Of a stretch of 64,000 nucleotides of DNA, positions 1,391 through 44,913 are shown piece by piece. The notes under the pieces are model-generated. The model was not told where the DNA came from and searched no databases. It saw nothing but the letters and a program-made list of their open reading frames with translations. The position numbers and the translations under genes were made by a program. Each line of letters starts with the position of its first letter. Within the stretch, counting starts at the first letter, position 1. The DNA comes from Minisyncoccota bacterium (GTDB lineage: Bacteria; Patescibacteriota; Minisyncoccia; Phycocordibacterales; Phycocordibacteraceae): positions 272,351-336,350 of the forward strand of contig DASWXP010000002.1 in the NCBI GenBank assembly GCA_036405415.1. Reading direction: 5' to 3'.

Positions 1391-1422
1391 AAATCCCCGG
1401 GACACCTCGTCCCGGGGATTTT
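1391..1422. terminator. GC-rich hairpin CCCCGGGAC-N7-GTCCCGGGG followed by T-run (rho-independent terminator after ftsZ)
   Basis: Perfect 9 bp CCCGGG-core stem followed by TTTT. Member of a recurring hairpin family in this window. Confidence 0.55.
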
Positions 1423-1436
1423 GCTATACTGCCCTC

Positions 1437-2360
1437 ATGCACGACCTCATCATCATCGGCGGCGGACCAGCGGGCGTCGCCGCTGGCGTCTACGCCTCCC
1501 GCAAGCGCCTCAAGTCCGTCCTCGTCGCCGAAGAGATCGGCGGACAGAGCACCGTCTCAGACGGCATCGAGAACTGGATCGGAACCGTGCGTATCGCGGG
1601 CGAGGACCTCAAGAAGTCCTTCAGGGAGCACCTAGAGGCCTACAGGGGCGACGTACTCGACGTTATCGAAGGAGACCGCGTCGAAAGCCTTACGCGTACG
1701 GGAGAGGGCTTTACGGCCACTACGCGCGATGGCAAATCCTTTACCGCGCGCGCGGTGCTTATCGCGTCTGGCGCGAGCCGCAAGAAGCTTCTCGTACCAG
1801 GCGCGGACAAGTTCGAGAACATGGGCGTCACGTACTGCGCGAGCTGCGACGGCCCCCTCTTCTCCGATATGGATGTTGCGGTCGTAGGCGGCGGGAACGC
1901 AGGCCTTGAGACCGCGGCGCAGCTCCTTGCCTACGCGAAGTCCGTCACCCTCATACATCGCCATCCGGCATTCAAGGGCGAAGCGATCACCGTCGAGAAG
2001 ATCCTTACGCATCCGAACCTAAAGACCGTCATGAACGCGGAGCCGACCGAGGTGCTCGGCGAGAAGTTCGTCTCAGGACTCATCGTCAAGGATCGCACCT
2101 CGGGCGAAGAGACCACCCTTCCCGTTACGGGCGTGTTCGTCGAGATCGGCGTCATCCCGAACACCGGGTTCGCGAAGGATCTCGTGGAGCTCGACGAGGT
2201 GGGTCGCGTCGTAACCAACGCGCGCGACCAGCACACCTCTGTCGAAGGAGTCTGGGCCGCCGGAGACTGTACGGACGAGCTCTATCACCAGAACAACATC
2301 GCGGCAGGAGACGCCGTGAAAGCGCTCGAGGATATCTATCAGTGGCTCGCGAGGAGATAA
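1437..2360 (+). CDS. trxB: Thioredoxin-disulfide reductase
   Basis: Translation starts MHDLIIIGGGPAG (FAD fold), has the CASC redox motif and a second GGGNAG NADPH motif. The ATG lies 6 nt downstream of TGCTATACT. Confidence 0.9.
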   Translation: MHDLIIIGGGPAGVAAGVYASRKRLKSVLVAEEIGGQSTVSDGIENWIGTVRIAGEDLKKSFREHLEAYRGDVLDVIEGDRVESLTRTGEGFTATTRDGKSFTARAVLIASGASRKKLLVPGADKFENMGVTYCASCDGPLFSDMDVAVVGGGNAGLETAAQLLAYAKSVTLIHRHPAFKGEAITVEKILTHPNLKTVMNAEPTEVLGEKFVSGLIVKDRTSGEETTLPVTGVFVEIGVIPNTGFAKDLVELDEVGRVVTNARDQHTSVEGVWAAGDCTDELYHQNNIAAGDAVKALEDIYQWLARR

Positions 2361-5492: not shown

Positions 5493-5525
5493 ACCCTGTC
5501 CCCTGATGCGGTATCGTGCGAGCAC

Positions 5526-5823: not shown

Positions 5824-5865
5824 GGCGGCCTCGCACTAGATATCCAAATGCGCTATAACGGACCC

Positions 5866-6732
5866 ATGAACCGGACTATCGTCTTTTACCATGGCAGCTG
5901 CCCGGACGGCTTCGGCGGCGCGTACGCAGCCTGGAAGAAGTTTAAAGACTCTGCGGAATACATACCGCTTTCCCGGTCTGAAGACGCGCTTCCGGACGTC
6001 TCTGGAGCCGACGTGTACTTCATCGACTTCGTATACGAGAAGGAGCGTATGGATGCGATCGCAGCTGAGGCGAATAGCCTCATCGCGCTCGACCACCACG
6101 AAGGCGTCCGCGACGTAACTGAATCGCTTCCGGGTTCCGTCTTCGACAACGACCGCTCAGGCGCCTCTATCGCCTGGAACTACTTCCATCCGGACGCTCC
6201 CCTTCCGAAGCTCCTCTCGTACGTCGAGGACGACGACCTATTCCGCTTCGCGCTTGCTGATACCCGTGCCGTCCTCTCATACATAGCCATCCGCCCATAC
6301 ACGTTCGAAGCGTGGGACGAGCTTGCAGCAACGCTCGAGAATTCTGAAGAAGCTGGAGCGTTCCTTATGAAGGTACGCACCTACGCGGAGTACTTCGAGC
6401 TCCTTGCCGCGTATGCGGTCGAGCATGCCAAGCTCATCGACTTCGAAGGACATCGCGTCTACTTCGCAACCGCGCACCCGTTCAAGCCGATGAAGTCGCT
6501 CGTCGGGAACCTGCTCGCGAAGAAGCGTGGGCCGTTCTCCCTAGTAGTGGCAGCGCACCCCAACGGGTACGGCGTCTCCATCCGCGGAGACGGCACCATC
6601 GACGTGTCAGAGATCGCGCGCAAGTATGGCGGCAACGGACATAAGAGTTCGTCAGGGTTCCTCATCCCGGCCGGCGGCCCGATGCCCTGGACGCTCGTAG
6701 AAGACGATGACGATTCTCTCAATCGAGACTAG
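5866..6732 (+). CDS. DHH/DHHA1 family phosphoesterase (NrnA-like)
   Basis: The translation has DHH motifs (FYHGSCPDGFGGAYAAW, DHHEG) and a C-terminal GGNGHKSSSGF (DHHA1). The ATG lies 6 nt after TATAAC. Confidence 0.8.
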   Translation: MNRTIVFYHGSCPDGFGGAYAAWKKFKDSAEYIPLSRSEDALPDVSGADVYFIDFVYEKERMDAIAAEANSLIALDHHEGVRDVTESLPGSVFDNDRSGASIAWNYFHPDAPLPKLLSYVEDDDLFRFALADTRAVLSYIAIRPYTFEAWDELAATLENSEEAGAFLMKVRTYAEYFELLAAYAVEHAKLIDFEGHRVYFATAHPFKPMKSLVGNLLAKKRGPFSLVVAAHPNGYGVSIRGDGTIDVSEIARKYGGNGHKSSSGFLIPAGGPMPWTLVEDDDDSLNRD

Positions 6733-7919: not shown

Positions 7920-7940
7920 TTTGCTATATTCGACCTATAT

Positions 7941-10091
7941 ATGGACGACAAATTCCTTAAGCCCTACGACCCTCTGGAGACCGAGCCCCGGATATACCAG
8001 GAATGGGAGGAGAGCGGGTACTTCAACCCTGACCGGATGATCGCGGACGGCCTGACCGACAAGGATGCCGAGGCGTTCAGCATCATCCTGCCGCCCCCGA
8101 ACGTCACAGGACGCCTTCATATGGGTCACGCGCTCATGCTTGCGGTTGAGGACGTGTTCGTCCGGGCAAAGCGCATGCAGGGATACCGGACGCTCTGGAT
8201 CCCCGGCACGGACCATGCGGCAATCGCTACGCAGTCCGTGGTTGAGAAAGAAGTGTCGAAGAAGGAAGGCAAGAGCCGCTACGACCTCGGACGCGAGGAG
8301 CTGCTTCGTCGCATCGAGACGTTCGCGAGCGAGAGCCATGACACGATCGTAGGACAGGTGAAGACGATGGGGGCGTCCCTCGACTGGTCGCGCGAAGCCT
8401 TCACGCTTGATGAGACCCGCACCCGCGCCGTGCGCGAGGTATTCAAGCGCATGTACGACGCAGGGCTCATCTATCGCGGCAACCGCATCGTGAACTGGGA
8501 CCCGAAGGGACAGACCACGATCTCTGACGATGAGATTGTGCACGAGGAACGTACCGCAACTCTCTACACGTTCAAGTATGCGAAGGACTTCCCGATTGCC
8601 ATCTCCACCACGCGTCCTGAGACCAAGGTGGGAGACGCCGCGGTCGCAGTGCATCCGGACGACGCGCGCTATAAGGAGTACGTAGGCAAGGAATTCTCCT
8701 TCACCTTCTGCGACGTACCGGTAACGGTACGCGTGGTTGCTGATGCGGAAGTGGATCCTGCGTTCGGTACCGGCGCGCTCGGCGTGACGCCTGCGCATAG
8801 CCAGATCGACTGGGAGATCGCGGATCGCCATGACCTCCCGCGCCCGCAGGTCATCAACGAGTATGCGAAGATGACGGTCGAAGGCCGCCTCTCGGGCAAG
8901 AAGACCGCGGAAGCGCGCGAGATGGTGGTCGCGTGGCTTCGCGAGGAAGGCCTTCTCGAGAAGGAGGAGCAGGTCGCGCAGAACATCTCCACCGCAGAGC
9001 GCACGGGCGGCATCATCGAGCCCTTGCCGAAGCTCCAGTGGTTCATCGACGTGAATAAGGAGATTCCCGGCCGCGGCAAGTCCCTCAAGCAGCTCATGCT
9101 CGAGCCGGTGCGCGACGGACGTATCACGATAGTCCCGGAGCATTTCGATAAGACGTACTTCCACTGGATCGAGAATCTGCGCGACTGGTGCATAAGCCGC
9201 CAGATCTGGTACGGGCACCGCATTCCGGTGTGGTACCAGGGCGAGGAGATGGTCGTTGGCGAAGCGCCCGAAGGAGATGGCTGGACCCAGGACGAGGACA
9301 CGCTCGATACCTGGTTCTCCTCGGGGCTCTGGACCTTCTCCACGCTCGGCTGGCCGGAACAGACCGAAGACCTCAAGACCTATCATCCGACGGCGATCCT
9401 CGAGACCGGATACGACATCCTCTTCTTCTGGGTGGCGCGCATGATCCTCATGACGGGCTTCGCGCTCGACGAAGTGCCGTTTAGGACCATCTACCTGCAC
9501 GGTCTCGTGCGCGACGCGCAGGGACGCAAGATGTCGAAGTCGCTCGGCAACAACATGGATCCGCTCGATATCGCGAGCAGGTTTGGCGCGGACGCAGCGC
9601 GCATGGCGCTCATCGTCGGCAACACGCCTGGAACCGATACGCGCATCAGCGAGGACAAGATCAAGGGCTATAAGAACTTCGCAAACAAGCTCTGGAACAT
9701 CACGCGCTACGTTCTTACGGAGACCGAAGGCGTAGATGAGAACGCGGCGCTCACCGAGCCTGATGCCGCAATTCGCGCGGAACTCGATGCGCTCATCGCG
9801 GACGCAACCAAGGATATCGACGAGTACCGCATCTACATGGCCGCGGACAAGCTCTACCATTACGCGTGGGATCGCCTCGCATCCGAACTCCTCGAAGAGT
9901 CAAAGACAATCTTCCAAAGCGAAGACGAGGCTGCAAAAGTTTCCCGAAAGGCACTTCTTATCTCGCTCTTGCGCGATGTGATTACCACGCTTCATCCGTT
10001 CATGCCATTCGTGACGGAAGAGATATGGAAGAGCATCCGTCCTGCCGACGGACTCCTCATGACGGCAAAGTGGCCGGGAAAGACAGTGTAG
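7941..10091 (+). CDS. valS: Valine--tRNA ligase
   Basis: Class I aaRS HIGH (PPPNVTGRLHMGHA) and KMSKS motifs, with ValRS-specific editing and anticodon-binding regions. The real ATG is at 7941, downstream of TGCTATATT. Confidence 0.9.
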   Translation: MDDKFLKPYDPLETEPRIYQEWEESGYFNPDRMIADGLTDKDAEAFSIILPPPNVTGRLHMGHALMLAVEDVFVRAKRMQGYRTLWIPGTDHAAIATQSVVEKEVSKKEGKSRYDLGREELLRRIETFASESHDTIVGQVKTMGASLDWSREAFTLDETRTRAVREVFKRMYDAGLIYRGNRIVNWDPKGQTTISDDEIVHEERTATLYTFKYAKDFPIAISTTRPETKVGDAAVAVHPDDARYKEYVGKEFSFTFCDVPVTVRVVADAEVDPAFGTGALGVTPAHSQIDWEIADRHDLPRPQVINEYAKMTVEGRLSGKKTAEAREMVVAWLREEGLLEKEEQVAQNISTAERTGGIIEPLPKLQWFIDVNKEIPGRGKSLKQLMLEPVRDGRITIVPEHFDKTYFHWIENLRDWCISRQIWYGHRIPVWYQGEEMVVGEAPEGDGWTQDEDTLDTWFSSGLWTFSTLGWPEQTEDLKTYHPTAILETGYDILFFWVARMILMTGFALDEVPFRTIYLHGLVRDAQGRKMSKSLGNNMDPLDIASRFGADAARMALIVGNTPGTDTRISEDKIKGYKNFANKLWNITRYVLTETEGVDENAALTEPDAAIRAELDALIADATKDIDEYRIYMAADKLYHYAWDRLASELLEESKTIFQSEDEAAKVSRKALLISLLRDVITTLHPFMPFVTEEIWKSIRPADGLLMTAKWPGKTV

Positions 10092-10101
10092 AATACAAGG
10101 G

Positions 10102-10815
10102 ATGCTCTCTACAGAGACCCTTTTCTACGCCTTCCTCGGCGGGATCCTTCCCGCGCTGATCTGGCTGTACTTCCTCCTGAGAGAGGACCGTCGCTGTCCC
10201 GAGCCGCGCTCTATGATTGCACTCGCGTTCCTCGCAGGCATTCTCTCCGTCCCGGTCGTGCTTCCGCTCGAGCGCCTGTCGGTGCTCGCGCTCCCGGCCG
10301 GCATCCCGGTCATCCTCGCATGGGCGTCGATCGAAGAGACGGTGAAATACCTTCTCGCGGCCCTTCTCGTGCTGTGGCGTCGCGCCGTGGACGAATCGGT
10401 AGACCTCGTGGTCTACATGATCACGGTCGCGCTCGGGTTCGCCGCGCTCGAGAACATGCTCTTTCTTATCGCGCCGTTCTCAGGCGGCAACATGCTCGAA
10501 GGATTCCTTACCGGAAACCTCCGCTTCATCGGCTCCACCCTGCTGCACGTGGTTGCGAGCGCCGTCATCGGATTCGCGCTCGCGTTCTCCTTCCGCAAGG
10601 GACTCATCGTGCGTACACTGCTCGCGACACTCGGACTTATCCTTGCGATCGCGTTGCATGCCCTTTTTAACTTCCTTATAATCGATGGAAGCGGTTCGTT
10701 TACGCTCCTTGCGTTCTTCATGGTCTGGAGCGGAGCCGTCGTCGTCTTCGCACTCTTCGAAATACTGAAGTACCTGCGTTATCACCGATTACCAAAGAAC
10801 ACTTGCGAAATCTAG
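10102..10815 (+). CDS. PrsW-family intramembrane protease-like membrane protein
   Basis: Multi-TM translation with an EE..K motif, FAALEN and HALFNF motifs typical of PrsW/CPBP-type proteases. Confidence 0.55.
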   Translation: MLSTETLFYAFLGGILPALIWLYFLLREDRRCPEPRSMIALAFLAGILSVPVVLPLERLSVLALPAGIPVILAWASIEETVKYLLAALLVLWRRAVDESVDLVVYMITVALGFAALENMLFLIAPFSGGNMLEGFLTGNLRFIGSTLLHVVASAVIGFALAFSFRKGLIVRTLLATLGLILAIALHALFNFLIIDGSGSFTLLAFFMVWSGAVVVFALFEILKYLRYHRLPKNTCEI

Positions 10816-11356: not shown

Positions 11357-12430
11357 TTAATGGGTCTCCTCGTGGAGCGCTGGGTGCGCGTATGAGCGGA
11401 TCGCCGTGAACCTAACTTGCCCTATCACCTGCCCGTTCTCCGTCTCTACCCGCACGCGCCATTCGCCAGGAACCACGCTGCTCACCTCTGAGTATCCGCG
11501 ATATCCGTCCGTCCGTCCGCCTGCTATCGGGAACGCGATCCTGCTCTGTGTCACCCACTCGCGGCTGGTCTCGTCATAGCGTTGCCAGCGATGCACAACG
11601 GTTGCGCCGAAACGTATCGGCGCCTGCACCGCGCTGAACGCGTAGAGCGGACTCCCTGCAGCTACCTGGATGGTATCCGGACGCGGATCCCACCATTCCC
11701 TGCCTTCCTCTGCCATGACTACGTACCGGTCTCCTTCGCGCACGAGGCTATGGAAGACGCCGCTGTCCTTGAGCGCAAGCGGGATAGGCGGCACGAGCCC
11801 CGTGAAGTACGCGCCTATGACGAGCGCGACGATGGCAAGACAGGAGGCGATGATAGGCGCGAGCGTGCGTCCGAGCTTTGCTACCCTCCCCAAAAGCATG
11901 AGGTATATGCCAAATATTGCGAGCGCACATGCCGTGCTTGCGAGGAATACCCAGGGACCGAGGGTACGCAGGAAGAGCGGGATCGCGAATATCGCATACG
12001 CGTACGCGGCGAAGAAGAGGAGTACCGCGATGAAGGCGATGCGGTCCTTGTACTTCCTGAACCACTCGTTGCCTATGAACACGAGGAGGAATAGGAGCAG
12101 GAACGGCCAGCTCGCCTCGAGCGCCGCGCTCTTCGTGTAGAAGATAAGGAACCAGGAAAGCAGGTTGCCGATGAGGTACTGCGCGACAAGCGGCAGGATG
12201 ACCGCGATGGAACGCTTGCGTACGGACGGCTCCGACCGCCAGCCGGAGAGCGCATGCGTAAGGAATACCGCAAGCGCTGCAAGCGCAAGGTAGGTACCTG
12301 AGGCTGCAAGCACGAACGACACGTCGAGCAGCACGAGCGCGATGACGTCGGTTATGAATCCAAACAGGAAAACGAACGCGCCGAGGTGCCGTTCGTTTCT
12401 CTGTGCCCAGGCAAGTACCCTGCGGATCAT
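11357..12430 (-). CDS. Hypothetical polytopic membrane protein with C-terminal soluble domain
   Basis: 357 aa with about 8 TM segments followed by a roughly 130 aa hydrophilic tail. No family recognised. Confidence 0.55.
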   Translation of the reverse strand: MIRRVLAWAQRNERHLGAFVFLFGFITDVIALVLLDVSFVLAASGTYLALAALAVFLTHALSGWRSEPSVRKRSIAVILPLVAQYLIGNLLSWFLIFYTKSAALEASWPFLLLFLLVFIGNEWFRKYKDRIAFIAVLLFFAAYAYAIFAIPLFLRTLGPWVFLASTACALAIFGIYLMLLGRVAKLGRTLAPIIASCLAIVALVIGAYFTGLVPPIPLALKDSGVFHSLVREGDRYVVMAEEGREWWDPRPDTIQVAAGSPLYAFSAVQAPIRFGATVVHRWQRYDETSREWVTQSRIAFPIAGGRTDGYRGYSEVSSVVPGEWRVRVETENGQVIGQVRFTAIRSYAHPALHEETH

Positions 12431-12460
12431 GCCTTAACTATACGCCATTGAGGGCGTTGC

Positions 12461-12537
12461 TGGTGCTTGGGGGCGGGCTCGAACCGCCGACCCTTCGCTC
12501 TTCAGGCGAATGCTCTACCAACTGAGCTACCCAAGCA
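12461..12537 (-). tRNA. tRNA-Phe (anticodon GAA), CCA encoded
   Basis: Manual cloverleaf: anticodon loop CTGAAGA, D-loop AGTTGGTAGAGC, T-loop GGTTCGAGCCC. Confidence 0.85.
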
Positions 12538-12577
12538 AGTGAGGAGATTCTAGCATATTGGGCCCCGGTTTCCAGGG

Positions 12578-12985: not shown

Positions 12986-13624
12986 TTAGGCAGATAGTAC
13001 CCTTTTGGATGCTTCTTTTCCAATCAGCTGGATTGCACTTTGGATTACTAATCTCTCACGGATACCGGACCGAACACGAATCCTGCACATACCATACTGA
13101 AGCTTTCCTTTCTTTTTCCCTTTAATTATTTCAACTCTATTAATCCTGCTAGCTGGGACATTAAGGGTGCGCGACCAGAATTGGCACGCATGTGGTTCCG
13201 AGATATCTGCATGTAGACGCAGTGACAACGAGATTCTTTCTCGAGGGATTCCCATGTCATCTAGACAGCCCAAGAATGCCACCAGCAGGTTCGGATCAGA
13301 GTTAATTACAGAGAAATCCTTCTTAGTACCTTCGCCCCAATAGAGACCAATTAGCAGGAAGAGAGTGTCACGTGTATTAATCTCGCCGATGAGACCTTTT
13401 GCCCTTTCTAGCGAGTTCTCTCTTAATCCCAAAGCGCGCTCTTTTCCGCCGCCTTGCTTCTCCCGCAGTAACCTCCGCGCTTCCTGGGAAATCGGAACAT
13501 GCTTCACGTAGCGTTGTATGGTGGTCTTTGCCATTCCTGTCTCTCGAGAGATTTCAGGAATACTCATGCCTTGGAGCCTGCGCGCAACTATCATCAGTCT
13601 CGCCTCCTCAGACATCCTTTTCAT
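12986..13624 (-). CDS. Low-GC HTH-domain protein with degenerate LAGLIDADG-like motifs (possible freestanding homing endonuclease or mobile gene)
   Basis: About 47% GC against about 62% background. N-terminal HTH (ARRLQGMSIPEISRETGMAKTTIQRYV), then LIGLYWGEGTK and FLGCLDDMG motifs. The stop codon abuts the 5' end of tRNA-Arg. Confidence 0.5.
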   Translation of the reverse strand: MKRMSEEARLMIVARRLQGMSIPEISRETGMAKTTIQRYVKHVPISQEARRLLREKQGGGKERALGLRENSLERAKGLIGEINTRDTLFLLIGLYWGEGTKKDFSVINSDPNLLVAFLGCLDDMGIPRERISLSLRLHADISEPHACQFWSRTLNVPASRINRVEIIKGKKKGKLQYGMCRIRVRSGIRERLVIQSAIQLIGKEASKRVLSA

Positions 13625-13678
13625 TTGGATATTCTAACAGGATACTGGGAAATAATATTAATATCCACACATTAATAT

Positions 13679-13725: not shown

Positions 13726-13968
13726 TTACGCAGCAACGCCGAGAAGCTCGTCGAAGCGCTTCTTATCGAAGCCGACGATCATCTCGTCGCCGATGAACAC
13801 GACCGGAACGCCCATCTGGCCGCTCTTGTCGATCATCTCCTGGCGCTTCTCCATGTCAGAGGCGACATTGAATTCGGTGTAGGAAACGTTGTTCGCCTTG
13901 AAGTACTCCTTGCTCATCTGGCAGAAGTGGCAGGTCGGGGTGGTGTAGATGGTGACAGTAGTATCCAT
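13726..13968 (-). CDS. Glutaredoxin-like protein (NrdH/Grx family)
   Basis: 80 aa with a CHFC redox motif in a thioredoxin-fold context (IYTTPTCHFCQ). Confidence 0.8.
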   Translation of the reverse strand: MDTTVTIYTTPTCHFCQMSKEYFKANNVSYTEFNVASDMEKRQEMIDKSGQMGVPVVFIGDEMIVGFDKKRFDELLGVAA

Positions 13969-14009
13969 ACGATGTTGTTTATGTCCCTAGTATAGCAATT
14001 TCGAACCGG

Positions 14010-14085: not shown

Positions 14086-14451
14086 TTACCAGATCCCGAA
14101 GAACCCGAGGATCCGCTTGTACCACGGAAGGTGCGGCTCGAGACCGTCATCCTTCGGCGGTAGGACGATGATAACCTCTTCTCCGGCCTTCGCAACGCCA
14201 TGATTCTGACGGAGGGTCGCCTCCTGTCCGCGCTCGGTGGAAAGCTCCTCGAGGTTCGTTTCGAGCTTCTCTTTCCGCTCCTGAAGCATCGCGAGCTCCT
14301 CCTTCTGGTCTTCCACGGCTTTCCGGGCTCGCTCCTCCTTTTTCGCGATCCCCCAGACCGCCCAGGCGAGTATGAGCACCACGACGGCCAAGAACGCGGC
14401 GAGCGCGTACTCTCCTGCCTTCTGGACATGCTTCTTCGAGGAGCGAGGCAT
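14086..14451 (-). CDS. FtsB/DivIC-like septum formation initiator family protein
   Basis: N-terminal TM, coiled coil and a C-terminal motif (GVAKAGEEVIIV) typical of the FtsB/DivIC family. Confidence 0.5.
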   Translation of the reverse strand: MPRSSKKHVQKAGEYALAAFLAVVVLILAWAVWGIAKKEERARKAVEDQKEELAMLQERKEKLETNLEELSTERGQEATLRQNHGVAKAGEEVIIVLPPKDDGLEPHLPWYKRILGFFGIW

Positions 14452-14471
14452 GCGCCCAGTATAGCAAGCGG

Positions 14472-17987: not shown

Positions 17988-20525
17988 CTAGCGCTGAGCA
18001 GGTCCGGTTGCGCTTTCGTTAAGCGGTCCCTGTGGGATGCCGAGCGCCCCGAGGCGCGATGGCGGGAACGGATTGCGTCCTGCCCGCACTGCGGCGAGAT
18101 CCGCCGCGACAGACTGCGCGTTCTCCGGAGAGAGCGCCGCCACCTGCTCGAGCTCCGCTGCCGCCTGCGGGAACTGGCCAGCGATCGCGTACATGACGCC
18201 GAGGAAGAAGCGGGCGTTCGCGTACTGCGGATTCGCCGATACCGCCCGCGAGAGCGCGTCAATCGCGCCCTGGGTATTGCCGTTCGCAGAGCGGAGGATG
18301 CCGACCTGGAAGAGTACTACCGGATCGTTCGGCGCGAAGTACGCCGCAGCTTCCGCTGCCTCGAGCGCTTCGCGCGCACGGCCCTGCTCCGCCTCGAGCT
18401 GCGAGAGGAGGAAGATTGCCTGAGTGTAGTCACGCTTGAGCGCGATCGCCTGCATCAAGGCTTCGCTCGCTGCCTGGTTGTTGTCGCGCGCGATCTCAAG
18501 CTGCGCTACGACGTAGGGAAGCGCAGGGCTCGTCGGATGGAGCGCAATCGCCTGGTCGTACGCGGTCTTCGCGTTCTCGTAGGCGCCCTCGATGTTGAGC
18601 GGCACGACGGTCTGGTACACGTTTCCGAGCATCGCCCAGTTCTGGTACTCATTCGGTCCGAGACGGGTAGCCGCGAGCGCTGCTTCGATGGAGCCTGAGA
18701 GCGCGCCCTGGAACTGCGCCTGCGCATCTGCCTGCGAGAGCGTGGTGTCTCCTGCGATCTGGTTCATGCGTGCGATGCCGATTCCTGCGATGAGCTCGTA
18801 CACGCGATCGCTCTCGCCGAACACGAGCGCGCGGTTAGCAGCGGCAAGCGAGTTCTCGACGTTCCCAGCAGCTAGCTCGTTGGCAGCTTCGGCGTACGCG
18901 ACGCTTCCGAGATAGCGCTCGATAGCGACGTATGCCGCGAGGATCGACGCGAGGAGGAGGAGTGTGAGCGCGAATACGATCACGAATCCAACCTTCGGGC
19001 TGCGCGCGAAGATGATGCCGAGCTCACGCGCGTCGCGGCCGTAGCGCATCGACGAGACGAAGATACCCATCATGAGGAACCCGGCGAGCAGTACGAGCGG
19101 GCCCGGGACCGCGAACACCATAAGCGCGAGCGCGTAGAGGGAGCCTACGAACGAGGATACCGATACGAAGCGCACGAACGGGTCCTGCGGGAGGCGTGCG
19201 AGGAGGAAGCGTCCGCCTACGAACAGGAAGAGGCCTGCGAACGCGAGCCATGCGAGCGCTCCGGCAAGGCCGGTAGTCACGAACGAGGTCGGGATGTAGC
19301 CGATACCGGTCGTGAAGTCGACATTCCAGAAGATGGTGTCGTTGAGGCTGCGGTCCTTGTGGCGCGTCCACTGCGTGTCGAAGGTTCCGGGACCCGAACC
19401 GAAGAGCGGCGAGGATGCGTAGGTGTGGCTACCGATATCGAACGTAGACTGCCATGACGGACGGACATCGATCACATTCACGCCGAGCGCGGTCGCGAAC
19501 GAGCTGCCGATAGTGCTGCCGCCTACGAGGAAGAGGAGCGATACCGCGAGGGTCGCGAGCGGAATGCCGAGGAAACGGTTCCCAGTAGAGATCTCTTCCG
19601 GTTCTTCAGCAAGAAGGAGCGCGACGCCATCGAGGTCGCTCTCTTCGCCTGAGCCGCGGTTCTTCATGATGGCCTCGATGAAGAGGGCGAGCGATACGAG
19701 CGCGATGAGTACCCAGACGACGACCGAGTTCACGAGGGCAAGCACGAGGAGCGCTACCGCGCCGCCGACGAGAAGCAGCGTGCGGGTGCGGGAGGACAGC
19801 GTGAGGAGACGGAGCGCGAGAAGGCCGGTTACGACCGCAAGGCCGAGGAACATGCCAAGGTCCACGAACGAGCCAACGAGATTGACCGTCGGCGAGATCA
19901 CGGACGGCGCGACACGGCCGACGAGCACGATCAGGACCTGAGCCGCGAGCACTACGCCCGTAACAACCGCGCCAGCCCCGAAGAAGAGGCGCAGGCTATT
20001 CGTGCGGCGGAACGAGAGTGCGGTAAGGGTCGCGAATGCCGAGAGCATGAGCACGAACCCGAACGTATCGGTCTCAAGCTCCGTACCGAAGAACGAGTCC
20101 GTGATTCCCGCGCCCGAGAACAGGGACGATAGGAGGTACGCTGCCGGTACGAGCCACAGGGCGCCAAGGAGCGGCAACGGCGGCACGATCACGTTTCCGC
20201 GTGAGAGGCGAGCGAGGATAAAGAGCACGAGGGTCACGAGCGCGCCGAGCGCGAGCACCGTCACCTTGGTGTAGAGAAACGGAATTGTTGCGGACGGGAT
20301 AAGAGCGAACGCGCCGAGCGCGAACGAGAGCACGACGGCCCATGTGGTGGCCATGTCGAAGGAAAGGCGTCGCTTGCCTCCCTGCGCACGGGTAACGGTC
20401 TCCTGCATAATAGGTAATTCCAAAGCTGCCCTGGTAATAGGTTCCAGTATAGCTCGCTTGCCTGTCCGTTTCCGGAAGGCATGTGGAAGAAACGTTGATT
20501 TTCTCTCCATATGTCGTATTATCAT
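17988..20525 (-). CDS. O-antigen-ligase-like polytopic membrane protein with C-terminal TPR-repeat domain
   Basis: 845 aa: about 12 TM segments including a Wzy_C-like region, then about 300 aa of TPR-like repeats (AYDQAIALHP, AIALKRDYTQA). Confidence 0.6.
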   Translation of the reverse strand: MIIRHMERKSTFLPHAFRKRTGKRAILEPITRAALELPIMQETVTRAQGGKRRLSFDMATTWAVVLSFALGAFALIPSATIPFLYTKVTVLALGALVTLVLFILARLSRGNVIVPPLPLLGALWLVPAAYLLSSLFSGAGITDSFFGTELETDTFGFVLMLSAFATLTALSFRRTNSLRLFFGAGAVVTGVVLAAQVLIVLVGRVAPSVISPTVNLVGSFVDLGMFLGLAVVTGLLALRLLTLSSRTRTLLLVGGAVALLVLALVNSVVVWVLIALVSLALFIEAIMKNRGSGEESDLDGVALLLAEEPEEISTGNRFLGIPLATLAVSLLFLVGGSTIGSSFATALGVNVIDVRPSWQSTFDIGSHTYASSPLFGSGPGTFDTQWTRHKDRSLNDTIFWNVDFTTGIGYIPTSFVTTGLAGALAWLAFAGLFLFVGGRFLLARLPQDPFVRFVSVSSFVGSLYALALMVFAVPGPLVLLAGFLMMGIFVSSMRYGRDARELGIIFARSPKVGFVIVFALTLLLLASILAAYVAIERYLGSVAYAEAANELAAGNVENSLAAANRALVFGESDRVYELIAGIGIARMNQIAGDTTLSQADAQAQFQGALSGSIEAALAATRLGPNEYQNWAMLGNVYQTVVPLNIEGAYENAKTAYDQAIALHPTSPALPYVVAQLEIARDNNQAASEALMQAIALKRDYTQAIFLLSQLEAEQGRAREALEAAEAAAYFAPNDPVVLFQVGILRSANGNTQGAIDALSRAVSANPQYANARFFLGVMYAIAGQFPQAAAELEQVAALSPENAQSVAADLAAVRAGRNPFPPSRLGALGIPQGPLNESATGPAQR

Positions 20526-20529
20526 CCAT

Positions 20530-20844
20530 GGACCCTGGCCTGACGACCGCTGCCCTAGGCAGAGGAAAGTCCGAACACAGGCTCACCTTGTGTGAGCAGT
20601 CTGGTAGCAGGTAACGCCTGTCCGCCGTAAGGCGCGAGGTGCGAACAGAAACGACGGATGCCGAAAGGCTACGTACTCTCCTTTGGAGAGTGTCCTAAGG
20701 GCGACCTTAGGCTGAAACGGCTAAATCCTTACCGCTGTGCAAGGCCGTGCCCATCATTGTGTGGGAGCGCCGCTCGAGGTGCGTGGCGACACGCATCCCA
20801 GATAGATGGTCGTCCGCGACAGAATTCGGCTTATGACCAGGATC
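20530..20844 (+). ncRNA. rnpB: RNase P RNA, bacterial type A (rnpB), compact form
   Basis: Conserved AGGAAAGTCCG (P4 5' strand), GGTAACGCC, AGGGCG and the 3' ACAGAATTCGGCTTAT (P4 3' strand). P1 pairs GGACCCTGGCC with GACCAGGATCC. A terminator follows at 20853. Confidence 0.7.
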
Positions 20845-20852
20845 CGCTTACA

Positions 20853-21433: not shown

Positions 21434-21461
21434 GTGCGTGGCTGTTATACCACGAATCAAT

Positions 21462-22407: not shown

Positions 22408-22968
22408 CTAGAACGAGACCTTCACCGGCTCGCGTGCTGCTTCCTCGACTTCGGAAAGCTCGAACAGTGCCATCTGCGAGAAGCCGAACGGCTTCGCGAT
22501 CACGTTGCCTGGGAACTGCTCAACCGCGGTGTTAAGGGTCTGCACCGTGGTGTTGTAGAAACGGCGGCTCGCCATGATCTTGTTCTCCGTGTCAGAGAGC
22601 TCGCGCTGGAGCTCGAGGAAGTTCGTGTTGGCCTTAAGGTCCGGGTATGCCTCGGAAACCGCAAAGAGGGACTTGAGCGCGCCCGTAAGCATGTTCTCCG
22701 CTTCTGCGTGCTCCGTTACGGTCTGCGCGCCCATAGCCTGCGTGCGCGCCTGCGTCACGCTCTCGAGCGCCTGGCGCTCATGCGCAGCGTACCCCTTCAC
22801 CGTCTCGATGAGGTTCGGGATGAGGTCGTAGCGGCGCTTCATCTGCACCTCGATATCGGACCATGCCTCCTTCGCGCGGTTGCGCATCGAGACGAATCCG
22901 TTGTATGCGAACACAACCCAGAGCACGAGTACGGCAACGATGCCGAGCACGATCCAAAGAGTCATCAT
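22408..22968 (-). CDS. lemA: LemA family protein
   Basis: LemA domain conservation (RYDLIPNLIETVKGYA, FYNT). The likely start MMTLW is at 22968. Sits beside htpX as in many genomes. Confidence 0.8.
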   Translation of the reverse strand: MMTLWIVLGIVAVLVLWVVFAYNGFVSMRNRAKEAWSDIEVQMKRRYDLIPNLIETVKGYAAHERQALESVTQARTQAMGAQTVTEHAEAENMLTGALKSLFAVSEAYPDLKANTNFLELQRELSDTENKIMASRRFYNTTVQTLNTAVEQFPGNVIAKPFGFSQMALFELSEVEEAAREPVKVSF

Positions 22969-23280
22969 ATATAGATATTGTAGGATTTCTGCGCATCCGC
23001 GCAAGGAAGGGAATTCATATCCCCTTCATTGCCGACGGGGCGTTCCGGAGGTATGGTCGAAGCAGAAACGGAGGATGCACACCATGAGCTTATCTGCATA
23101 CGAACTGGCCGCCCTGCTCGGCGCGGCTCTGCTCGTTCCCAAGGTCCGCGAGTTCTGTTCGGGCTTCTGTTCCGGCCTGTTCGGCTGGGATGGCTACGAC
23201 TCAAGCGAACGCTGACGGCCCGAAGCGAAAGCGAAAATGCCGCGGCTTCTCAGTCGCGGCATTTTTCATTTCAGAATTTC

Positions 23281-24924
<1,644 letters not shown>

Positions 24925-24943
24925 TTAGAGAGGGAAGTAAGAC

Positions 24944-25252
24944 TTAGGAAAGGATCGCGAGCACGTTGGACTCGGAGAGGATGTAGTACTCTTGTTCGTC
25001 GACTTTGACCTCGTCGTATCCGTACTTGGAGAAGAGGACAGTATCGCCAACTTTTACTGTCATAGGAATGAGGTCGCCGTCCTCGTAGCGTCCGCCACCA
25101 ACCGCGACCACGGTCCCCTTCGAGGGCGCATCTTGTTTCGCCGAGTCCGGGATGATGATGCCGGAAGAGGAGACCTCCTCCTTCGCTTCGGGCTTCACGA
25201 CCACACGGTCGTTGAGCGGCGTAATAGAAAGGCTGTTCTTTGGCGTAGCCAT
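24944..25252 (-). CDS. groS: Co-chaperonin GroES (10 kDa)
   Basis: 102 aa with the canonical LNDRVVVKP...GIIIPDSAKQ GroES sequence. Confidence 0.95.
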   Translation of the reverse strand: MATPKNSLSITPLNDRVVVKPEAKEEVSSSGIIIPDSAKQDAPSKGTVVAVGGGRYEDGDLIPMTVKVGDTVLFSKYGYDEVKVDEQEYYILSESNVLAILS

Positions 25253-31440: not shown

Positions 31441-31466
31441 AAAATGCCGCATCGCTGCGGCATTTT
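31441..31466. terminator. Hairpin AAAATGCCGCATCGCTGCGGCATTTT
   Basis: Perfect stem with a T-run after rnj. Confidence 0.55.
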
Positions 31467-31494
31467 CTCTTTACCGGATGCTAGAATTCCTTCG

Positions 31495-32649
31495 ATGCAT
31501 CCCCGTCTCGTTCTTTCTACAGGCAACTTCTTCAGCGCGATGTACTTCGCGCTCGTGCTTGTCATCGCGGCGCCGTACCTCGCGCTCTTTTTGCCTGAAT
31601 CGCAGGTAGGGCTCGTGATATCGTTCGGCGCGCTCCTCACGCTCTTCGTGTTCCCGTTCGTGCCGCGGCTCGTGCGCAGATGCTCTTCAAGGACGCTTGC
31701 CATAACGTTCGCGTTCTCGCAGGCAGTGCTCCTTTCCGTGCTCGCCGCAGCGCCTGCGCCGTTGTTCGCGATCATCTGCATCGCGCTCATATTCGCCATC
31801 GCGCCCTTCATCTCCTATCAGCTCGACCTTCTCCTTGAGTGCGCGAGTACCGATGAGAGCTCTGCGGGCAGGGTCCGTACGCTATTCATAACGGCCGCGA
31901 GCCTCGCATACGTGGCTGCGCCGCTCCTGGTCGCGTTTCTCATAGACGGCACCGATGCGTACTGGAAGATTTTCCTTGCTGCGGCCCTCTCGCTTACCCC
32001 GTTCATCGCGCTTCTCATGTTCGAGAAACTCCCTGAGGGTGAGCCGCCCGAGCTGCACGCGATGCTCGCCACCTGCTCGTGCCTCTGGAAGGATAAGGAC
32101 CTAAGGGCCGCGACGCTCGCGGGCGCAGTACTGCAGTTCTTCTTCCACCTTGCGCCCCTCTATATCCCGCTCTACCTCCACACGGTCCTCGGGTTCCCCT
32201 GGGACGAGCTCGGCTGGATATTCGCGCTCATGATCGTACCGTTCCTGTTCGTAGAGTACCCTGCCGGCTATATCGCGGACCGCTGGATCGGAGACAAGGA
32301 GCTCCTCATCGCAGGGATCGTGATCATGGGTGCCGCATTCGCAGCTATCGGATTCATCACCGCGACGACGCCGCTCTTCGTTATCGCGGCGATACTGTTC
32401 GTAAGCCGCATCGGTGCGGCGCTCGTGGAAGCCATGACCGAAGGCCACTTCTTCAGGAGGGTCTCGGGGCAGGACGTGACCACCATAAGCCTGTTCCGCA
32501 TGACGCGTCCTTTCGGCGCGCTTGTCGCTCCCCTGTTCGCGAGCGCACTTCTCCTCAGCGGGAACTTCCTTCTCTTCTTCCTCGTCTCAGGTGCGCTCAT
32601 AGTCGCGCTCGGCATCGTGTTCACGATTCCGCTTAAGGACGTGCACTAG
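31495..32649 (+). CDS. MFS-type transporter
   Basis: Polytopic hydrophobic translation. The start is placed after the rnj terminator at MHPRLVLS, with the ATG 7 nt after TGCTAGAAT. Confidence 0.7.
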   Translation: MHPRLVLSTGNFFSAMYFALVLVIAAPYLALFLPESQVGLVISFGALLTLFVFPFVPRLVRRCSSRTLAITFAFSQAVLLSVLAAAPAPLFAIICIALIFAIAPFISYQLDLLLECASTDESSAGRVRTLFITAASLAYVAAPLLVAFLIDGTDAYWKIFLAAALSLTPFIALLMFEKLPEGEPPELHAMLATCSCLWKDKDLRAATLAGAVLQFFFHLAPLYIPLYLHTVLGFPWDELGWIFALMIVPFLFVEYPAGYIADRWIGDKELLIAGIVIMGAAFAAIGFITATTPLFVIAAILFVSRIGAALVEAMTEGHFFRRVSGQDVTTISLFRMTRPFGALVAPLFASALLLSGNFLLFFLVSGALIVALGIVFTIPLKDVH

Positions 32650-33455: not shown

Positions 33456-33675
33456 CGTTCCCCTTCTCTGCTGCCGGCGCTACGAGGGCAGCCTCAGGGA
33501 CGATTATGACCGCAAGCACGTATCCGACGATTCCGGGAACGAAGCCGGTGAAGACCGTGAGGATGAGGTACCCGAGGCGTAGCAGCACCGGGTCTACCCC
33601 GAAGAATTCGCCGAGTCCGCCCATTACGCCGGCGATCATGCGATTCGTGCGGCTCCTGTAGAGTTTCTTTTCCAT
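33436..33675 (-). CDS. PspC domain-containing membrane protein
   Basis: RSRTNRMIAGVMGGLGEFFGVDPVLLRLGYLILTV is the PspC signature. The ATG is 8 nt after TTTTGCTATACT. Confidence 0.7.
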   Translation of the reverse strand: MEKKLYRSRTNRMIAGVMGGLGEFFGVDPVLLRLGYLILTVFTGFVPGIVGYVLAVIIVPEAALVAPAAEKGNDDAEAV

Positions 33676-33960
33676 ATGTAGGAAGTATAGCAAAACCCCC
33701 TCCAGGCCGGAGCCAGGAGGGGGAGGTCGTAGTTCCATGGGAACGAAGCGACGGGTGGTTTAGCTAGGGATCAGAGCAACTAAAGAGGGTGCCCCCTCAA
33801 ACCGTAGGGTACAGCCTGTGAGGCCTTCACCACATGGCGTTGGTTGTTTTGTGCAGCTTAGGCGCGGACGCCTTCACATGCTCCCTTCTCGAGAAACCAA
33901 GCTACGCCCGCACGGAACCAGGACCAGCAGCACTTTACTAGTTTCAGAAAGGTACGTCAA

Positions 33961-35093: not shown

Positions 35094-36293
35094 TTAGAGG
35101 CTTTCCGTATCAAGCGCATCGGTGCGCGAGAACGCGAAGCGGTACGCGATAGCGACGATGGCGCCCGTAGCCGCAAGGAACAGGACGAAGAGTATGAGCT
35201 TGCCAATAACCGGCACCATACCTACGAGGCTGAGCACGAGCATGCCGAGGATCGCGAGCTTCCAGGTAACCTGCTCCTGCTTCAGGAGCCCCCTGCTGAG
35301 CGCTGCGCCCGCGATCACGCCCGCGTACAGGTATCCGAGCATAAGGAGGAGCAGATACGCGACAAGAATCAGGAACGCAACCGCCATGCCCACGAACGAG
35401 ACCAGGAGCAGGATGATGAACACGGGTGCAGCGAATACGACCGCAAACCCGAGGAGCGCCAAGAGCGCGAACTTGCCCGGAGAGCGCGCGAGCGTGCGAT
35501 CCGCCACCCGCTGCGAGAACTCAGGGAAGAGGCCCGCAAGGAGCGCTGTACCGATAAGGAGCGATATGATGCGCACGACGAGGAACACTCCTGCGCCTGC
35601 GATCGCGAATGTCTGCGCTTCTTCCACGCTTGGAAGGTATGAAGACGCGCCCGTATAGAAAACGCCTCCGGTAACGGTCGCGGTCGCGGGGATACCCGCT
35701 TCCTGCGGCGCGTCGTACCGGAGCTCACCTGCGATAACCGTACCTTCCGCTAGCGTGAGCCGGTCGGTCGCGAGCACCTCGACGTCACCCTGAAAGATTC
35801 CGGAGAGCTGGATGTCCGAGCCGTAGACAACGGTCTTCGCGCCGCCACCGTTCATGCGCACGGTGCCGCCGAGGATGCGCGTCTCCAGAGCTGAGGAAGA
35901 CGCTATTACGGTTCCTCCTGCAAGGACGAGGTCTCCGGTTACCGGACCGGTTACGGATACCTGCGCGCCGAGCGCACGAACATCGCCCTGAACCGGGCGC
36001 TCGATTGTTACGGTGCCGCCCGCGACAAGCACGTCCCCTTCGACAGGACCCGCGACAGTAAGCGTGCCGGCAGCGCCCACGATATCCGCCGAAAGCGGAG
36101 CTACGACCGCCACATCGGTCCCTGCCACATAGGCATTGCCTTCAGGAACCTCTGAAATGACGAGGGAGCGGGCGTTCCAGAACGTGGCTGCGGATACGTC
36201 CGCCGGGAAAAGCGCGCTTACGAGGAGGATGACCGCGAGGAATCTGAAGCAGGCCATGATGCCGCCATCATACCACGGGGCCCCAGGCGTCAA
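35094..36293 (-). CDS. Membrane protein with N-terminal beta-helix (bactofilin-like G-x-V repeats) and C-terminal multi-TM region
   Basis: Signal peptide, then repeats such as VAGPVEGDVLVAGGTVTIERPVQGDV, then about 6 TM segments. Confidence 0.5.
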   Translation of the reverse strand: MTPGAPWYDGGIMACFRFLAVILLVSALFPADVSAATFWNARSLVISEVPEGNAYVAGTDVAVVAPLSADIVGAAGTLTVAGPVEGDVLVAGGTVTIERPVQGDVRALGAQVSVTGPVTGDLVLAGGTVIASSSALETRILGGTVRMNGGGAKTVVYGSDIQLSGIFQGDVEVLATDRLTLAEGTVIAGELRYDAPQEAGIPATATVTGGVFYTGASSYLPSVEEAQTFAIAGAGVFLVVRIISLLIGTALLAGLFPEFSQRVADRTLARSPGKFALLALLGFAVVFAAPVFIILLLVSFVGMAVAFLILVAYLLLLMLGYLYAGVIAGAALSRGLLKQEQVTWKLAILGMLVLSLVGMVPVIGKLILFVLFLAATGAIVAIAYRFAFSRTDALDTESL

Positions 36294-36294
36294 C

Positions 36295-36753
36295 CTAGAG
36301 CACCGGAATGAGCTTCACGGGCGCGTGCCGGGTCCAGAGGACGTGGACTGCGGCAAGGACAAGGAACGCGATGAGCGCCGAGAAGAGGCAGTAGATGCAG
36401 AGCGCCTTGATGAGCGCGAACTGGATGAACACGAACACGAGTGATGCTGCGGCCCCGAACCAGGCGAGCGCGTACAAGGCGCTGAACAAGATGCGCTTCG
36501 GAAGGATGAATATGCCGAGCGCGAGCGTGAACATGAGCGCGAAGAACCCGACGCCATACAAGGCGAGCGGGAGCCCGAGGAGCTGCGAATACGGGCTCTG
36601 CGCGACGATATTGCAGCCGTCGAGCGCGCCGCCGATGTCGCAGGTGAGCGCAGTGTCGGTAACCGCGCTCTGGAAGAGGTACCAGGAGTCCGCCATGCCA
36701 AGGAACGAGAGCGCGATCACGATCGCAAGCAAGGTGGTGCGGTTCATGGTCAT
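36295..36753 (-). CDS. Vitamin K epoxide reductase (VKOR) family protein
   Basis: 4-5 TM segments, a loop Cys pair and a CIYC (CXXC) active-site motif. Confidence 0.75.
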   Translation of the reverse strand: MTMNRTTLLAIVIALSFLGMADSWYLFQSAVTDTALTCDIGGALDGCNIVAQSPYSQLLGLPLALYGVGFFALMFTLALGIFILPKRILFSALYALAWFGAAASLVFVFIQFALIKALCIYCLFSALIAFLVLAAVHVLWTRHAPVKLIPVL

Positions 36754-36813
36754 AATCCTACCCCGCCCCCGCCCGTACCGGCAACCTTCATATAAAGGCG
36801 CTACTATGAGCCT

Positions 36814-37200
36814 ATGGAAAAGACCGAACAGGAATGGAAAGAGACGCTGAGCCCCGAGGAATACCGGGTGCTCCGGGAATCAGGCACCGAGGCGCCGTTC
36901 GCAGGAAAATACGTGGACAATCATGAGGATGGCACATACCGCTGCAAAGCGTGCGGCACTGTGCTGTTCTCTTCAGAAACCAAGTTCGATTCAGGGAGCG
37001 GCTGGCCGTCGTTCACAGACCCCGCCGTAGCGGAGAACGTCGGGACCCGTGAGGACGAGAGCCTTGGCATGCGCCGCACGGAAGTCTTCTGCAGGAACTG
37101 TGGGAGCCATCTGGGCCACGTGTTTGACGACGGCCCTAAGAAAGCGGGCGGAAAACGGTATTGCATCAATTCCATCGCGCTCGATTTCGAGAAGCAGTAG
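36814..37200 (+). CDS. msrB: Peptide-methionine (R)-S-oxide reductase MsrB
   Basis: SelR domain with two CxxC zinc pairs (CKACG, CRNCG) and catalytic RTEVFC/GHVF motifs. Confidence 0.9.
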   Translation: MEKTEQEWKETLSPEEYRVLRESGTEAPFAGKYVDNHEDGTYRCKACGTVLFSSETKFDSGSGWPSFTDPAVAENVGTREDESLGMRRTEVFCRNCGSHLGHVFDDGPKKAGGKRYCINSIALDFEKQ

Positions 37201-38848: not shown

Positions 38849-39355
38849 CTAGAGCTTCCTGCTGTCGTATGCCCAATGGAGGAGCGCCTGCCTCTGGCGC
38901 GGCCTGCAGGTGTGGTCACCCTTACGGCATCCGTACTTCACCTGCGCTACGTGCCGCACCATCTGCTTCCAGCGCTTAATCTGGCGCTTGTCCTCCTCCA
39001 GGATGCGCCGGCCGCTATAGTATCGGCAGTACCACTGAAACCAGCCGCGCGGATCTTCCTCGTATATCCATCCCTTCGCGCGCCATACCGAGAGAGGCTG
39101 CGACGCGTTCACGCCGAAGTAGTTGAGTTCCTTCACATGCCGCTCGTGGCAGAGCGGAACCCCGTCGTACCAGTCCGGAAACTCGTCCTTACAGTCGGTC
39201 ATGTACTTGCCGCCGAACGCGCCGAGCTTCAATACCTCGTACGGAGTGAGGTCCGGCGTGAACTCAGGGTCGAAGTTCTTCCCTTCCGGTTCGGTGCGGA
39301 CATAGCTATACCCCTGCTGCATGAGGTCGTTCACGACCACTCTCTTTCCCGTCAT
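38849..39355 (-). CDS. Hypothetical conserved Cys/His-rich protein (168 aa)
   Basis: Motifs GWFQWYCRYYSGRR and C..C.H..H. The ATG is 6 nt after TGGTACTAT. No family assigned with confidence. Confidence 0.55.
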   Translation of the reverse strand: MTGKRVVVNDLMQQGYSYVRTEPEGKNFDPEFTPDLTPYEVLKLGAFGGKYMTDCKDEFPDWYDGVPLCHERHVKELNYFGVNASQPLSVWRAKGWIYEEDPRGWFQWYCRYYSGRRILEEDKRQIKRWKQMVRHVAQVKYGCRKGDHTCRPRQRQALLHWAYDSRKL

Positions 39356-39417
39356 GTCCCTATAGTACCAAAGCCGCTCCTTAAGGGAGCGGCTTTGGTC
39401 TCAACCGGTGCGAAGAG

Positions 39418-43890: not shown

Positions 43891-43943
43891 GGTCGGTAAA
43901 ATAAAAATGCCCCGAGGGCGATAAAGACAGCCTTAAAATACCT

Positions 43944-44827: not shown

Positions 44828-44913
44828 GCGGAAAGTATACCAGCGTTAAATTAATAATTGACTCGATGTATCTAAGGCATTAGGCTTTAGCCGGATCAAA
44901 AAGGAGTAATGCG

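Follow-up and report, generated by a model that had tools for sequence, protein, structure and literature searches.

The stretch of DNA analysed here, 64,000 nucleotides (nt) of contig DASWXP010000002.1 (the window; G+C content 60%), comes from an uncultured, ultra-small, high-GC Parcubacteria/Paceibacteria bacterium of the candidate phyla radiation (CPR). Among its roughly 66 protein genes we examined an element that stands directly upstream of many start codons, a −10-like hexamer, often in the extended form TGNTAYACT, a few nt before an ATG. For comparison we used loci of 80 related species (1.29 Mb, 1,387 called genes), which substitute for a whole-genome run. The initial annotation of the window had placed extended −10 boxes 6–8 nt before many ATGs and had cited nine examples. 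All nine are present, and Pfam confirms the identities of the genes; for the HlyD-family gene the spacer (the number of nt between the −10 hexamer and the ATG) is 9.

Boxes and start codons at trxB, in the window and in related species

Positions 1418–1439 of the window read ATTTTGCTATACT-GCCCTC-ATG, and the ATG at 1437 opens a 307-residue thioredoxin reductase, TrxB. The box (TGCTATACT; 1422–1439, + strand) stands at a spacer of 6. It adjoins the intrinsic terminator hairpin of ftsZ (1391–1421, + strand; fold −27.6 kcal/mol, z −6.5), the U-run of which enters the trxB extended −10, and the same arrangement, hairpin-TTTTG(C/G)TATACT, precedes trxB in many relatives. All 80 TrxB relatives (64–84% identity, all from metagenome-assembled genomes labelled Patescibacteria, Paceibacterota, Parcubacteria or Kaiserbacteria) align from residue 1, and the same start is used by an independent gene call on other contigs of the same metagenome (series SRR11449179-82). 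A TANNNT box lies 4–10 nt before the ATG in 72 of 79 trxB orthologues, with a spacer of 9 in 18 relatives. Two genes served as negative controls; the box was found in 8 of 64 ftsZ orthologues and in 2 of 26 orthologues of the operon-internal gene tsaD. ftsZ itself (1–77, + strand) has a TATGAT box at 34–39 followed by a conserved leader of ~37 nt and is not leaderless; the 30 nt before its ATG (ACTTATTAGGGGACCATTTAACAGCTCCAT-ATG) show almost no differences among the closest relatives shown.

Three further genes illustrate the conservation of the box. At valS (7922–7943, + strand; TGCTATATT, ATG 7941) the spacer is 10 and the predicted leader ~2–4 nt, making the gene near-leaderless; all 18 orthologues have a box at a spacer of 5–9, and the Pfam tRNA-synt_1 profile starts at residue 18. 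The promoter of the PrsW protease gene (10086–10104, + strand; gtgTAGAAT, spacer 7, ATG 10102) lies within the 3' end of valS, and a box is present in 7 of 12 orthologues. The DHH-family gene (5851–5868, + strand; cgcTATAAC, spacer 6, ATG 5866) has a hexamer ending in C, and its orthologues carry TATAAC, TATAAA or TACACT at a spacer of 6–8. An alternative DHH start at ATG 5848 was rejected because the orthologues do not conserve it.

The motif TGNTAYACT occurs 9 times in the window against 1.1 expected, a count reached in none of 100 shuffles. All nine copies lie upstream of a correctly oriented gene, seven of them with a spacer of 6–8. The loose pattern TGNTANNNT is not over-represented (50 vs 43.7 expected); the signal is carried by position and consensus quality, not by the abundance of the loose pattern. 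In an annotation-free test, we asked for every −10-like hexamer whether an ATG at a set distance downstream begins an open reading frame (ORF) of at least 100 amino acids. Such an ATG follows 18 of the 52 consensus-like hexamers of the window at spacers 6–9 (10, 4, 1 and 3 at 6, 7, 8 and 9, respectively), and spacers 10–30 sum to 6 (~0.3 each). For TANNNT in general, the window holds 30 combinations with an ATG at 6–9 nt and an ORF of this length, compared with 1.9 (maximum 4) in 30 dinucleotide shuffles. At the gene level, a box at spacer 6–9 precedes a candidate ATG in 22 of 61 automatically called genes, and decoy spacings (other box-to-ATG distances in the same intergenic DNA, used as background) give 2–5. 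The curated list for the window comprises 22 canonical cases, two cases with hexamers ending in C (DHH, TATAAC; DedA, TATACC) and three near-leaderless cases at spacers 10–12 (valS, 10; secG, 11; and a gene of 102 amino acids).

The initial annotation had proposed to measure the distance from TANNNT boxes to ATGs; carried out on the window and the 80 relatives, this measurement gave a sharp peak at spacers 6–9. In the relatives, 128, 60, 53 and 71 boxes stand at spacers 6, 7, 8 and 9, compared with ~7 at each other spacer, and GTG and TTG starts have no spacer peak, which is confined to ATG. The peak was also obtained with a blind set of 867 ATG genes (window and relatives), for which start codons were chosen by a longest-ORF rule ignoring the upstream sequence; here TANNNT occurs 157, 60, 47 and 57 times at spacers 6–9 vs ~13 times at each other spacer. 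In the logo of the blind set, T at −12, A at −11 and T at −7 relative to the ATG are the sole upstream information peaks, G is depleted at the expected location of a Shine-Dalgarno (SD) motif, and the upstream regions are G-poor generally. Per locus, the median share of genes with a box is 33% vs 7% for decoys; in 72 of the 73 loci the share is above the decoy level, and it does not depend on G+C content. The modal spacer is exactly 6 (213 of 473 boxes).

Promoter-like character and interpretation of the box

The TGn extension is evident in the 473 boxes, of which 51% have T at −15 and 62% have G at −14, the commonest triplets upstream of the hexamer being TGC, TGG, TGA and TGT. No −35 element was found among them, the information content being at most 0.09 bit at every position from −40 to −16. 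A scan for classical two-hexamer σ70 promoters (−35/−10) gave no enrichment (5 hits vs 5.1 in shuffles) and is uninformative here because the promoters lack a −35. Extended −10 (TGn) promoters function without a −35 element through contacts with σ70 region 3.0. The boxes resemble this class in the TG at −15/−14 of most of them, in the absence of −35 information and in the terminator stems found at the −35 position; they differ from it in that they predominate among the promoters of the sampled 1.29 Mb instead of forming a minority, and in that some conserved boxes end in C. Such C-ending variants (TATAAC, TATACC) lie at 5854–5859 (+ strand), 57661–57666 (+ strand) and 21444–21449 (− strand), at sites where orthologues carry TACACT; the DHH orthologues are in loci L004, L008, L012, L023, L027, L031, L047 and L056. 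A C at −7 is unusual for σ70 promoters.

The distribution of the box follows transcription units. Among genes less than 15 nt from a same-strand upstream gene, 12% have a box, which is the background level (decoy spacers, 5–12%); among genes with a gap of 15–100 nt or in divergent orientation the share is 46–47%. Decoy spacers in the same intergenic DNA give 5–7 times fewer matches than spacers 6–9. Boxes also precede genes for untranslated RNAs. For the 157 tRNAs in all loci, −10 boxes peak 8–10 nt before the mature 5' end (12, 23 and 20 vs ~5). In the window, boxes lie before tRNAs at 12547–12555 (− strand), 12994–13002 (− strand), 5509–5517 (+ strand) and 21444–21452 (− strand), that of tRNA-Phe (12537–12555, − strand) being TGCTAGAAT, 10 nt upstream of the tRNA 5' end at 12536. 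The RNase P RNA gene (20530–20849) is preceded by TATTAT 7 nt upstream of the RNA 5' end (20517–20530, + strand). The tRNA boxes at 8–10 nt would imply precursor 5' leaders of only ~1–4 nt, yet the RNase P RNA gene is present.

Terminator hairpins adjoin the box in 38 of 495 leaderless-type promoters across the clade vs 9 of 776 controls, about six times more commonly. Besides trxB, the window has a hairpin and U-run fused to the extended −10 at pspC (33684–33725, − strand; −25.4 kcal/mol) and at a gene encoding a 168-residue protein (39362–39400, − strand; −25.4 kcal/mol, z −6.5), and a looser hairpin/box arrangement at 31450–31487 (+ strand). At trxB, pspC and the 168-residue gene the terminator stem fills the −35 position, so that there is no room for an upstream promoter.

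Transcription from σ70 promoters begins 6–8 nt downstream of the final T of the −10 hexamer, so that at the commonest spacer, 6, the A of the ATG would be +1. The box is very probably a σ70-type extended −10 promoter (TGnTAYAMT, with little or no −35) and not a ribosome-binding site, and its placement would make RNA polymerase start at the A of the ATG or 1–3 nt upstream of it. About a third of the genes, and near half of the transcription-unit heads, would then yield mRNAs beginning at or within 3 nt of the AUG. The ribosome would recognise the 5'-terminal AUG directly, and initiation at such mRNAs would be independent of an SD interaction. The initial annotation had made the corresponding prediction, that many mRNAs start at or next to the A of the ATG. 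This prediction gains support from the TGn extension without a −35, the position of boxed genes in operons, the ATG-only peak, the boxes before tRNAs and RNase P RNA, the hairpins and the orthologues, with transcription start sites deduced from sequence.

Several points weigh against this leaderless reading. The transcription start positions are predicted from −10-to-start promoter geometry alone. Spacers of 9–12 nt probably give leaders of 2–5 nt rather than none; spacer-9 cases prefer A at position 7 (60%), and spacers of 10–12 also occur. A few of the ~22 window calls are probably due to chance, given decoy hits of 2–5 per 61 genes. The automatic call at 62282 (spacer 9, inside the pirin gene) is false, the Pirin profile placing the start at ATG 62387, for which the nearest box, TACTAT, stands at a distance of 15 nt upstream. 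The starts of the histidine kinase, NlpE-domain, lectin and MFS genes are based solely on coding potential and N-terminal sequence. Genes without a box likewise prefer a pyrimidine and are depleted of G at −1 (G, 6% vs 12%). A pyrimidine at −1 was accordingly rejected as specific evidence for the transcription start, since box-less genes show nearly the same bias.

Other explanations of the pattern were weighed against the same data. That it is an artefact, produced by motif-guided choice of starts or by chance TANNNT hexamers in AT-richer intergenic DNA, has next to no probability, even though some downstream ATGs (trxB, MFS, pspC) had been chosen by their box in the initial annotation and intergenic DNA is more A/T-rich than coding DNA. 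The annotation-free motif-to-ORF test peaks only at spacers 6–9, the blind longest-ORF starts reproduce the peak, the decoy and shuffle counts are far lower than those observed, and the box is conserved in orthologues across the 80 species; the annotation-free and blind-start tests effectively refute this reading. It is only slightly less improbable that the TA-rich box is a non-SD ribosome-binding or enhancer element within a longer 5' untranslated region, as in GeneMarkS-2 group B (Bacteroidota), and not a promoter. The box does stand at a distance from the ATG like that of a ribosome-binding site, the scarcity of SD motifs calls for another initiation signal, and the upstream regions are G-poor overall. 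Group B motifs, however, precede all genes including internal ones (Lomsadze et al., 2018; PMC6028130), whereas here internal genes are at background. The TGn extension is typical of RNA polymerase contacts, the box is limited to ATG starts and recurs at a matching distance before untranslated tRNAs and RNase P RNA, and the hairpins immediately upstream exclude another promoter.

A subtler alternative accepts the boxes as real promoters but gives most of the mRNAs leaders of 3–12 nt, with 30S-dependent, SD-independent initiation on an unstructured A/U-rich leader, so that 'leaderless' would be the wrong label for most of them. Spacers of 9–12 are common (valS, secG and the 18 trxB relatives), the A preferred at position 7 of spacer-9 cases fits this view, and the same promoters occur with predicted SD-less leaders of 13–27 nt at the genes for glutaredoxin and a DsbA-like protein (40107). 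At glutaredoxin (13968–13997, − strand) TGCTATACT lies 20 nt before ATG 13968, for a predicted leader of ~13 nt and no SD. We nevertheless consider short leaders as the general rule unlikely. The modal spacer is exactly 6 (in the blind set as well), the canonical value for a +1 at this A; the distribution of spacings matches that of the experimentally leaderless group C genomes described below; and the restriction to ATG fits recognition of a 5'-terminal AUG.

The leaderless architecture proposed here is of the kind known as GeneMarkS-2 group C, found in another lineage, and is not a new mechanism. Leaderless genes of mycobacteria use GTG too; here, by contrast, the peak stands at ATG starts only. 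In group C, a Pribnow box lies 6–8 nt before the start of operon-first genes and 25–50% of transcripts are leaderless; the group is typical of Actinobacteria and Deinococcus-Thermus, where it was validated by differential RNA sequencing (dRNA-seq), and the distribution of the motif between first and internal genes is the criterion by which GeneMarkS-2 tells promoters of the leaderless type apart from non-SD ribosome-binding sites (Lomsadze et al., 2018; PMC6028130). Assigned by sequence features, the present genomes resemble group C in a box localised before first genes and absent before internal ones, in at least 25% of genes affected and in high GC. They differ in lineage, Parcubacteria/Paceibacteria (CPR) being unnamed among the group C clades in the main text of PMC6028130; in the dominance of a strong extended −10 (TGnTAYAMT) without a −35; and in that the remaining genes seem almost without SD, group C being described with ribosome-binding sites at leadered and internal genes. 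Leaderless transcriptomes of M. tuberculosis, M. smegmatis and Deinococcus deserti (Cortes, 2013; Shell, 2015; de Groot, 2014), as they are presented in PMC6028130, likewise place TANNNT at its canonical spacing from +1, an A or G with which the start codon begins, in a quarter to ~60% of genes; those data rest on dRNA-seq and proteomics, and the present case on sequence and comparative evidence. Full-text literature searches pairing 'leaderless' with CPR taxon names returned no paper on leaderless architecture in the CPR.

Shine-Dalgarno motifs, operon-internal genes and tRNA-abutting reading frames

Taken over the whole window, SD motifs are no more frequent than at decoy positions; in the relatives they show a net excess corresponding to ~14% of the genes without a box. 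The 3' end of 16S rRNA, from which an anti-SD could be read, is present neither in the window nor in the 83 loci. In Parcubacteria only 48% of 16S sequences contain the anti-SD motif and bS21 is often missing, the mechanism of initiation having been left open (Tsurumaki et al., 2022; PMC9297842). The scarcity of SD motifs here fits this reported loss. Both studies concern the same clade and agree in this respect; theirs addresses the ribosome side and ours the mRNA side.

The initial annotation had set apart a class of genes with classical SDs. This holds for a few genes in low-GC islets, where GGAGG or AGGAG is clear at GcrA (37981), DnaA_C (44914), gene 26721 and gene 63399; it is weak for htpX and mntP, and across the window the class is small and of little statistical weight. 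The clear-SD genes lie in lower-GC stretches at ~25.8–27.4 kb, 37.4–38.4 kb, 44.9–45.5 kb and 63.3–63.9 kb, the content of which is unusual for CPR, including a homologue of the cell-cycle regulator GcrA (37981) and a DnaA C-terminal domain protein (44914). These stretches look horizontally acquired, with the initiation signals of their source retained. Elsewhere, in the 12 nt before the ATGs of groES and groEL (23281–25252, − strand) there is no SD and no −10 box; these genes, presumably expressed at a high level, fit neither model of initiation.

Genes internal to operons are mostly packed onto the upstream stop codon, with 68 overlaps of the ATGA type, 20 one-base overlaps (TGATG) and ~100 gaps of 0–8 nt. 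This packing suggests that internal genes may be initiated by translational coupling.

A second arrangement that would place an AUG at an mRNA 5' end involves tRNA genes. At 15 of the 157 tRNAs (~10%), the ATG of an ORF of at least 80 amino acids lies within −1 to +3 nt of the tRNA 3' end, compared with ~0.7 per offset at 6–30 nt. Such ORFs occur in the window at 21343 (− strand) and 3882 (− strand), and in loci L019, L026, L027, L043, L044, L061, L063, L065 and others; among the junctions are GCGCACCA|ATG (tRNA-Val to a DHH-family gene) and CTCCGCCA|ATG (tRNA-Ser to the orthologue of a 405-residue gene). In the window, tRNA-Ser(gga) is followed at 2 nt by a DUF192 gene, and tRNA-Ser(cga) at 7 nt by the 405-residue gene. 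Species differ at the DHH-family gene: in some it is preceded by a box of its own, and in others it starts 0–1 nt downstream of tRNA-Val.

The arrangement suggests that tRNA processing may yield leaderless mRNAs, resembling mitochondrial tRNA punctuation. As in mitochondria, an ORF 0–3 nt past a tRNA would become an mRNA starting with AUG on excision of the tRNA; unlike in mitochondria, only ~10% of tRNAs are concerned, in bacterial genomes with ordinary promoters elsewhere, and the case is known from sequence. If excision does leave mRNAs starting at AUG, the view of the 5'-terminal AUG as the target of the ribosome would be strengthened. A broader proposal, that recognition of the 5'-terminal AUG is the principal mode of translation start in this clade, its ribosomes having largely abandoned SD interactions and 5'-AUG ends being supplied interchangeably by box promoters or tRNA excision (as the DHH-family gene would exemplify), is tentative, and we hold it to be rather less probable than its opposite.

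Nearly all knowledge of CPR genomes comes from metagenomes, and the gene callers used to annotate them are SD-oriented. Should a third of the genes be leaderless and SD use marginal, the start calls, N-termini, signal peptides and operon maps of this large clade will need a leaderless model. The present reading offers a testable answer, from the mRNA side, to the question of initiation left open by Tsurumaki et al. (2022; PMC9297842). The compact promoter definition (TGnTAYAMT, no −35) is usable for predicting transcription units, and it may aid the design of expression constructs should the group become genetically tractable.

Other boxed genes in the window

The remaining boxed genes are distributed along the window on both strands. 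Between 12 and 23 kb, all on the − strand, they are a DUF2914 gene (12428–12445; gcgTATAGT, spacer 6, ATG 12430), an HTH (σ70 region 4-like) gene (13622–13639; TGTTAGAAT, spacer 6, ATG 13624), the Pfam domain of which begins at residue 2, a DivIC-like gene (14449–14466; TGCTATACT, spacer 6, ATG 14451) and lemA (22966–22985; tccTACAAT, spacer 8, ATG 22968), where the onset of coding potential falls at the same ATG. The MFS transporter gene (31479–31497, + strand) has TGCTAGAAT at spacer 7 before ATG 31495. On the − strand, pspC (33673–33692; TGCTATACT, spacer 8, ATG 33675) has position 1 of the PspC profile at residue 3, and a bactofilin-like gene encoding 387 residues (36255–36275) has TGGTATGAT at spacer 9 before ATG 36257.

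VKOR and MsrB have predicted divergent promoters (36745–36816), with gggTAGGAT at spacer 7 before VKOR ATG 36747 (− strand) and cgcTACTAT at spacer 6 before MsrB ATG 36814 (+ strand); the leaderless-type boxes stand back to back and the ATGs are only 66 nt apart. The 168-residue gene (39353–39370, − strand) has TGGTACTAT, spacer 6 and ATG 39355. A weak box without TGn (tttTATTTT, spacer 7) precedes ATG 43890 of typA/bipA (43888–43906, − strand), with position 2 of the GTP_EFTU profile at residue 2. An identification of this boxed gene as lepA was rejected, Pfam assigning it to TypA/BipA. The initial annotation was right that the ORF of lepA itself is over-extended, the TTG-initiated frame being too long (GTP_EFTU from residue 47), but the true ATG at 16259 has no box. 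For rnj (29503), which had been listed as a further case of over-extension with a leaderless start, no alternative start was found.

Further along the window, yceG/mltG (46558–46578, − strand; TGGTACAAT, ATG 46560) and the HlyD-family gene (49133–49153, + strand; TGTTATAAT, ATG 49151) both have a spacer of 9. The response regulator gene (54665–54683, + strand; TGGTACACT, spacer 7, ATG 54681) has profile position 1 at residue 7. The histidine kinase gene (56403–56420, − strand) has tacTATACT at spacer 6 before ATG 56405, with the onset of coding potential at 56462, and the NlpE-domain gene (57221–57240, − strand) has TGCTATCCT at spacer 8 before ATG 57223. The C-type-lectin/Big_5 protein gene (60657–60675, − strand; gggTATACT, spacer 7) starts at ATG 60659. 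Among the boxed genes, the start codons of PspC, Def, the response regulator, MsrB, BipA and the HTH protein are backed by Pfam profiles starting at residues 2–12.

A gene for a 119-residue protein and DedA (VTT) form a second divergent pair (57636–57676), with TGCTACACT at spacer 6 before ATG 57638 (− strand) and TGCTATACC at spacer 7 before DedA ATG 57674 (+ strand). Their opposite-strand boxes are interleaved, and the ATGs are only 35 nt apart.

The genes def (44825–44842, − strand; ATG 44827), in which position 6 of the Pep_deformylase profile falls at residue 8, and DUF305 (61625–61642, − strand; ATG 61627) both have TGGTATACT at a spacer of 6. Around these boxes, 44823–44846 and 61623–61646 (both − strand) share an identical 24-nt block, ACGCTGGTATACTTTCCGC-ATGAA, that spans the promoter and the start, and this common block may reflect a duplicated promoter cassette or co-regulation.

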